Both the position numbers and the translations under genes were made by a program. Below the pieces are notes generated by a model. That model was not told the DNA's origin and did not search any database. It was given only the letters and a program-made list of their open reading frames with translations. From assembly GCF_056746865.1 (NCBI RefSeq), contig NZ_CM163382.1: a stretch of 64,000 bases of DNA, one strand, 5' to 3'. Shown here piece after piece: positions 56,661 to 56,799 of the stretch (positions within the stretch are counted from its first letter, which is position 1; every line of letters begins with the position of its first letter).

Positions 56661-56799
56661 CAGAATTATTAATTAACTTTTTGATTTTATTGACTAAGAA
56701 AAAGAAAAGTAGTGTCATCTTTTTGTCATGCAAAGTGAAAACTCGCGGACAAAAATGCGTAAGATGACAACGGTGTGAGGAACACCGCGGTCAGTTCGT

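Follow-up and report, generated by a model that had tools for sequence, protein, structure and literature searches.

A conserved inverted Pho box in the lpf-pstS spacer of Escherichia coli: a very probable PhoB-binding site and a possible auxiliary operator of pstS

Introduction

No target of PhoB in E. coli is stronger than pstS, and the promoter of this gene, as known from K-12, is a textbook model. The canonical double Pho box of this promoter is said to have been described by Makino and Kimura in 1988-89, and the structure of PhoB on DNA reportedly by Blanco in 2002. In the stretch of DNA analysed here (64,000 nucleotides, hereafter the window), a fimbrial operon lies upstream of pstS, and the spacer between the two carries a direct repeat of two TGTCAT hexamers that points away from pstS. 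An earlier note on this DNA described the repeat as Pho-box-like and offered two explanations, namely a relic of the ancestral pstS upstream region, or a PhoB site through which the fimbrial locus would be regulated by antisense transcription or in response to phosphate. The locus thus raises the question of whether the inverted repeat is a PhoB-binding site and, if it is, what it acts upon.

Results and Discussion

Organization of the lpf-pstS junction

The pstS gene, the first of pstSCAB-phoU, occupies 55512-56552 on the minus strand, as defined by its open reading frame and the RefSeq annotation. Directly upstream, on the same strand, lies a chaperone-usher operon of four genes. The last of them (56800-57870, minus strand; stop codon at 56800-56802) encodes a fimbrial minor subunit of the LpfD-O113-like type according to its open reading frame, a Pfam Fimbrial domain and the RefSeq annotation, and has a GC content of 38.5%. 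In identical and related genomes, RefSeq labels the operon as lpfA-O113, lpfB-O113 and lpfC-O113 plus the lpfD-like 'fimbrial protein', and in many E. coli the glmS-pstS interval is an island of the lpfO113/lpf2 type. The lpfD-like gene is followed by a spacer of 142 bp, in which the inverted repeat lies.

The succession of lpfD and pstS is also found in Pseudocitrobacter vendiensis (L011), Superficieibacter sp. (L012) and Citrobacter sedlakii (L014). Because the adjacency is kept outside Escherichia, the junction is not a recent insertion in E. coli; it is old, or has spread as a unit by repeated transfer. At the other end of the island, within 62045-62800, an IS200-like Y1 transposase ORF (62150-62659, minus strand; Pfam Y1_Tnp) is inserted between the upstream region of lpfA and the 3' end of glmS, and the SIS-domain ORF at 62798-63871 marks the glmS side. 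Strain 118UI, which is otherwise identical, is without this insertion near lpfA. The possibility that the repeat represents a terminal repeat of the island or an att-like site was also considered and rejected; the spacer has no sequence of 10 or more nucleotides in common with the opposite end of the lpf cassette.

The pstS promoter of the window contains the canonical elements. The proximal Pho box, TTACATATAACTGTCACC (56618-56635, minus strand), scores 15.4 bits with the PhoB weight matrix introduced below, and the hexamer TATTTT at 56603-56608 on the minus strand, 9 nt after this box, we take to be the -10 element from what is established about the pstS promoter. The distal Pho box, TGTCATAAAACTGTCATA (56640-56657, minus strand), is the best match of the whole window (23.15 bits) and is the very sequence given for the pstS ChIP peak (PMC10294691).

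A strong PhoB motif in inverted orientation

The direct repeat GTGTCATCTTTTTGTCATG is present at 56712-56730 on the plus strand, where the earlier note had placed it, and its orientation opposite to pstS and its location 3' of the lpfD-like gene likewise agree with that description. The distance had to be corrected: the repeat had been put about 85 bp beyond the canonical boxes, but the gap from the distal box is 55 bp. Between centres, 73 bp separate the inverted box from the distal canonical box and 95 bp from the proximal one; the centre of the inverted box lies at about -125.5 relative to the inferred transcription start of pstS. In the 64-kb window, both strands counted, the pattern TGTCAT-N5-TGTCAT is found only in the inverted repeat and in the distal canonical Pho box of pstS (56641-56657, minus strand), and these two occurrences compare with 0.01 expected by chance. 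A second copy of the inverted box was not found in the window.

A Pho box consists by definition of a 7-bp element, (C)TGTCA(T/C), and a second direct copy of it 11 bp further on, and the 4 bp that separate the copies are rich in A/T. The 18-mer TGTCATCTTTTTGTCATG at 56713-56730 (plus strand) has two perfect TGTCA tracts, an 11-bp period and a T-rich spacer (TGTCAT-CTTT-T-TGTCAT-G), and the corresponding 22-bp contact span would be 56713-56734. A PhoB weight matrix was built from the 59 ChIP-seq site sequences of Fitzgerald 2023 (PMC10294691, Table 1). With this matrix the inverted 18-mer scores 18.4 bits, a value that only the distal pstS box exceeds in the window and that would give it rank 8 among the 59 ChIP-bound PhoB sites; the strongly bound ugpB site, TGTCATCTTTCTGACACC, is closely similar to it. 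According to an exact score-distribution calculation, 128 kb should contain 0.02 matches with such a score and the spacer 1e-4, the latter figure being calculated at the spacer's own AT-rich composition. A small ORF starting from the ATG at 56728 was considered and dismissed; it comprises 16 aa and is not preceded by a ribosome-binding site, and neither its frame nor its length is kept in the other alleles.

Conservation of the inverted box

The LpfD alleles collected share 79-85% protein identity with the allele of the window, and the lpfD-pstS spacers are much more diverged. Six sequences were compared, comprising five E. coli alleles and that of P. vendiensis, which was found by an LpfD profile search of species-representative genomes. 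In this set 37% of the spacer columns are invariant, and among all stretches of 18 columns the most conserved one coincides exactly with 56713-56730, 17 of its 18 columns being invariant (permutation p = 2e-5); the P. vendiensis box is identical to that of the window. When the set was composed of seven alleles from E. coli, Pseudocitrobacter and one metagenome, the box again had 17 invariant columns out of 18, against a median identity outside the box of 53% (minimum 37%), and none of 200,000 permutations reached the conservation of the box (p<5e-6).

Metagenomes were scanned with a pattern anchored on the distal Pho box and a terminator arm, and since both anchors are flanks the scan is blind to the box itself. 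It recovered 24 contigs with 11 distinct sequences, and the box is kept in all 10 sequences that belong to the lpfO113 clade. The variants differ at positions 7, 12 and 17 only (C7T, T12C and T17C) and still score 16.3-18.0 bits, namely TGTCATTTTTTTGTCATG with 16.4 bits, TGTCATCTTTTCGTCATG with 16.3 bits and TGTCATCTTTTTGTCACG with 18.0 bits. Contig Ga0098069_101763 (L019, positions 1705-1841) matches the anchors and has an unrelated spacer, which carries an inverted TGTCATCAATTCATCA element of its own and a 13.2-bit match.

In the more distant lpf2 clade, where LpfD identity is about 40%, the box has partly decayed at the homologous position. The counterpart in C. sedlakii, GTTCATTTTTTTGTCATA, is still recognisable with 13.5 bits, that of the O157 lpf2 type, TATCAGCATTTTTTCATG, is a degenerate remnant of 8.3 bits, and that of Superficieibacter scores lower still. 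In E. coli 24A16CRGN010 (L007, positions 1535-1560), a natural 4-bp deletion between the tandem GTCAT repeats has turned the box into TGTCATCTTTTATGTCAT, in which the repeats stand in a 12-bp register and no matrix match of at least 8 bits is left. This strain provides a ready-made loss-of-site allele.

Because the 18-mer is near-invariant within a near-saturated spacer, and because the variants are confined to motif-compatible ones, the comparison of sequences points to purifying selection on binding; on this evidence, PhoB binding at the position of the inverted box is maintained by selection. The idea that the repeat is a PhoB site is thus borne out by the high motif score together with conservation that matches the 18-mer exactly. 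The inverted repeat is very probably a genuine PhoB-binding site, and we consider it likely that PhoB~P binds to it.

Absence of the box from K-12-type genomes

The other proposal, a relic of the ancestral K-12-type pstS upstream region, did not survive comparison with K-12. In a three-way MAFFT alignment, the identity with the K-12 pstS upstream sequence runs to the last base of the distal Pho box, ending at 56657, and K-12 has no counterpart of the inverted box. By megablast, 5,422 of 5,426 complete E. coli genomes match the query, those of K-12 type only at query positions 1-105 (56553-56657), and a spacer of the lpfO113 type (at least 80% query coverage) is present in 1978 of the 5426, that is, about a third. 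In K-12, glmS and pstS are separated by a cassette of 208 bp that is unrelated in sequence, and its best PhoB-matrix matches reach 8.1-8.5 bits and have the orientation of pstS. With no homology to K-12 beyond 56657, the inverted box belongs to the spacer that accompanies lpf.

The K-12-type spacer has a TGTCA-rich run of its own, CTGTCACAGAATGAAAATTTTTCTGTCATCT (L001, positions 1679-1711), which consists of three 11-bp units in pstS orientation scoring 8.1-8.5 bits, and a lone inverted TGTCAC also occurs in the K-12 glmS-pstS cassette. Since the K-12 cassette is TGTCA-rich too, weak extra PhoB half-sites upstream of pstS may be a general feature.

The other conserved blocks of the spacer

Beside the box, only two blocks of the spacer are conserved, an IHF core and a terminator hairpin. 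The putative IHF core, AATCAAAAAGTTA (56674-56686, minus strand), is a perfect match to the consensus WATCARNNNNTTR and sits between the inverted box and the canonical boxes; on the plus strand it reads TAA-N4-YTGATT. The consensus has 10 matches in the window. In all alleles of the clade and in Pseudocitrobacter the core lies at the same place relative to the distal box, at 16 nt and without indels, and its N4 segment varies freely (AAAG, TAAG, TGGA, TTTA, TAAA, GGAG and ACAT on the minus strand, the last being that of the L017/L020 metagenome allele, ATGT in its plus-strand form). The spacers of K-12, the O157 type, C. sedlakii and Superficieibacter lack the consensus, and the strong inverted box and the IHF consensus co-occur in the same clade. 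From its match to this short consensus, 56674-56686 may be bound by IHF. The effects of IHF at pst (Spira & Yagil 1999; Taschner 2006, as cited in PMC3129296) concern K-12, the spacer of which is without the consensus. A minus-strand promoter with ATGACA as the -35 or TAAAAT (56684-56689) as the -10 element was rejected for want of a partner hexamer; the IHF consensus accounts better than a promoter for the TAA that is invariant at 56674-56676.

The second block is the terminator hairpin of the lpf operon, CTGACCGCGGTG...CACCGTTGTCA (56765-56793, minus strand). No other structure was found to be conserved by RNAalifold, and compensatory changes affect three of the 12 pairs of the hairpin. A consensus scan found no textbook intrinsic terminator, and it misses the lpf terminator because the tail of the latter is only moderately U-rich. 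The third TGTCAT of the spacer (56764-56769, minus strand) is accounted for by the 3' arm of this terminator. The arms contain TGACA/TGTCA, and in the clade of O157, Superficieibacter and E1V33 the equivalent hairpin has CTGTCATAAAA on the opposite strand. A large hairpin made of the box and a terminator arm was seen in a single-sequence fold and was discarded, as it is not conserved in the alignment fold.

What the inverted box may act upon

The earlier note's suggestion for the fimbriae would make the inverted box the -35-replacing Pho box of a PhoB-activated plus-strand promoter, from which antisense RNA across the lpfD terminator and 3' end would render lpf expression phosphate-responsive. 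The orientation of the box does suit transcription of the plus strand, and an A-rich hexamer, AAAACT (56738-56743), three A's of which are conserved, follows 7 nt after the 18-mer. However, the gap to the -10 is 9 nt in both pstS (TATTTT) and phoE (TAAAAA), a position at which the window has AACTCG; no allele shows a conserved TAnnnT at a gap of 7-10 nt, and the plus strand lacks the -10 at about 10 nt after the 18-mer that marks a class II-like PhoB-activated promoter. A sigma-70 consensus scan finds no plus-strand promoter beside the box. The sequence just downstream is among the least conserved of the spacer, nothing beyond the box being conserved except the lpfD terminator, and the transcript would at once meet the 12-bp terminator palindrome. 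Since neither a conserved plus-strand -10 nor a conserved RNA structure including the box is present, an antisense promoter is poorly supported and seems quite unlikely to us, and the anatomy of the site does not back fimbrial regulation. Nor is there a strong PhoB site near the lpfA promoter: looping to lpf through such a site was rejected, the region having a 10.4-bit low-complexity match only. A link between PhoB and lpf was not found in the literature searched, and lpf is not mentioned in two Pho-regulon transcriptome papers on pathogenic E. coli. It is also improbable that the conserved block is the target of another direct-repeat regulator of the OmpR/PhoB family, or an RNA element of the lpf 3' UTR such as a pairing partner of the terminator arm, a processing site or a small-RNA site. 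A single-sequence fold of the minus-strand RNA (z = -2.85) has AAGAUGACA, which is part of the box, base-paired to UGUCAUCUU in the 3' arm of the terminator, and a U-rich run follows the box on that strand. The alignment fold, on the other hand, retains the terminator hairpin only; the long pairing of the box and the terminator hairpin are mutually exclusive, and the inner stem is not conserved. The C-to-T change of the O169 type would cause an A-C mismatch in the minus-strand RNA, yet it is tolerated by the PhoB motif; no Rfam family matches within 56400-57000 at E<=1, and the match to the PhoB matrix equals the top ChIP-bound sites, which speaks against either version.

Most likely, the inverted box is an extra control site of pstS rather than a switch for the fimbriae. 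It resembles the canonical pstS double Pho box in having two TGTCA tracts 11 bp apart and A/T-rich minor-groove segments at the same locus, and the regulator is presumably common to both. It differs in its opposite orientation, its location about 125 bp upstream and its absence from K-12. At promoters that it activates, PhoB is presented to sigma-70 region 4; lying about 125 bp upstream of the start and in the wrong orientation, the inverted box cannot place PhoB against region 4 and is thereby unable to act as a promoter box. Its distance from the distal box is 71-74 bp, about seven helical turns, across alleles and genera. We put at about even the possibility that the inverted box, as a high-affinity auxiliary PhoB operator, is part of an extended pstS upstream control region peculiar to genomes in which an operon of the lpfO113/lpf2 type directly precedes pstS. 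That it actually acts on pstS as such an upstream operator is proposed more tentatively. Under phosphate limitation, a head-to-tail dimer of PhoB~P would occupy the two TGTCA tracts 11 bp apart, and a bend induced by IHF would bring this upstream dimer beside the PhoB array at -30/-52, so that it may modulate the occupancy and the output of the pstS promoter. The U-turn of the DNA would re-orient the inverted site parallel to the canonical ones, which would explain the inversion. It is the spacing of about seven turns, the rigidly placed IHF consensus and this re-orientation by a U-turn that suggest an auxiliary operator; PhoB binding in vivo, IHF binding and looping at pstS are what we infer from this arrangement. 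The extra site might have either an activating or a damping effect. Gao and Stock 2015 (PMC4447250) point out that the activity of some promoters with multiple PhoB sites falls when PhoB~P is high, and for this reason the extra site could raise sensitivity or cap the output.

The main rival to an auxiliary operator is a PhoB-bound site with no direct effect on any promoter, transcriptionally inert or buffering, which is perhaps retained for local titration of PhoB~P or for opposing nucleoid-protein silencing that emanates from the AT-rich lpfD. Most PhoB sites found by ChIP-seq in K-12 are without a detectable transcriptional role (Fitzgerald 2023, PMC10294691), and the low GC content of lpfD fits in with the silencing idea. 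Moreover, the inverted site is missing or degenerate in K-12- and O157-type strains and broken in 24A16CRGN010, and the canonical promoter shows no obvious loss there, so the site must be dispensable for basic pstS function. On the other side stand the near-invariance of the exact 18-mer and the motif-compatible nature of its variants, which imply purifying selection on binding, and the IHF consensus, which is co-conserved at a fixed distance, suggesting that the site belongs to an organised nucleoprotein structure and does not stand alone. On balance we find an inert site rather unlikely. A chance or hitch-hiking sequence with no function is scarcely credible: the spacer is AT-rich and TGTCA-like pentamers are frequent upstream of pstS, the K-12 cassette included, but the expectation of 1e-4 for the spacer contradicts it, and the conservation analysis (p<5e-6, with the box preserved across genera) effectively refutes it. 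A further elaboration of the auxiliary operator, in which the inverted box, the IHF site and the double Pho box form a conserved looped nucleoprotein module that evolved specifically at this junction to couple lpf and pstS or to insulate them from each other, is unlikely. Such a module could, for example, serve as a phosphate-dependent boundary that shields the pstS promoter against read-through and silencing from the AT-rich fimbrial operon; alternatively, it could feed the phosphate status back to lpf via the 3' end of the operon.

Comparison with known systems

The closest parallel to the inverted pstS box is found at phoE. According to Tommassen et al. in 1987, an upstream inverted element is reportedly needed for full phoE expression. 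In the K-12 sequence we verified that the promoter box of phoE is preceded, at a distance of 57 bp, by an inverted box, TGTAATAAAAGCGTAAAC, which is also the motif given under the phoE ChIP-seq peak (PMC10294691). Both phoE and the pstS locus of the window thus combine a canonical -35 Pho box with a second, oppositely oriented PhoB box upstream. The distance is 57 bp at phoE, compared with 73 bp (distal) or 95 bp (proximal) here, and the inverted box is stronger here (18.4 against 11.3 bits). Unlike phoE, pstS has two tandem canonical boxes and a conserved IHF consensus, and what is known of the arrangement here comes from sequence.

By analogy, the layout at pstS may also be likened to that of ompF, with a distal site for a regulator of the OmpR/PhoB family (F4), an IHF site and a promoter-proximal array. 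The F4 OmpR site lies about 360 bp upstream, acts in repression and is the basis of a looping model for remote tuning; the distance of the inverted box at pstS is far shorter than these approximately 360 bp. A third comparison is with the inert PhoB sites (Fitzgerald et al. 2023, PMC10294691), which share with the inverted box a strong motif off the promoter position and a location near or in acquired AT-rich DNA. Those sites are mostly intragenic and poorly conserved, whereas the inverted box is intergenic, lies beside the strongest PhoB target and is sharply conserved. The strain used for the published PhoB ChIP-seq (PMC10294691) is K-12, which is without the lpf-type spacer DNA.

The inverted pstS box is apparently an undescribed Pho box in an arrangement already known from phoE; it extends a phoE-like regulatory grammar and does not constitute a new one. 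It represents a lineage-specific upstream extension of the textbook pstS promoter in roughly a third of E. coli genomes. If the box and the IHF consensus are functional, K-12 could differ from many commensal and pathogenic lineages in the threshold, the timing or the ceiling of Pst induction. Virulence traits are influenced by the Pst/Pho status.

The third-best match to the PhoB matrix in the window, TGTAAAAAAGTTGTAATA (40091-40108, plus strand; 15.8 bits), lies in the intergenic region between yidZ and a yieE-like gene and has the orientation of the downstream gene, which is phosphopantetheinyl-transferase-like (40197-40958). This site has no good -10 at a 9-nt gap and is absent from the K-12 ChIP-seq list. 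According to a study of an APEC pst mutant, yieEF is mildly down-regulated.
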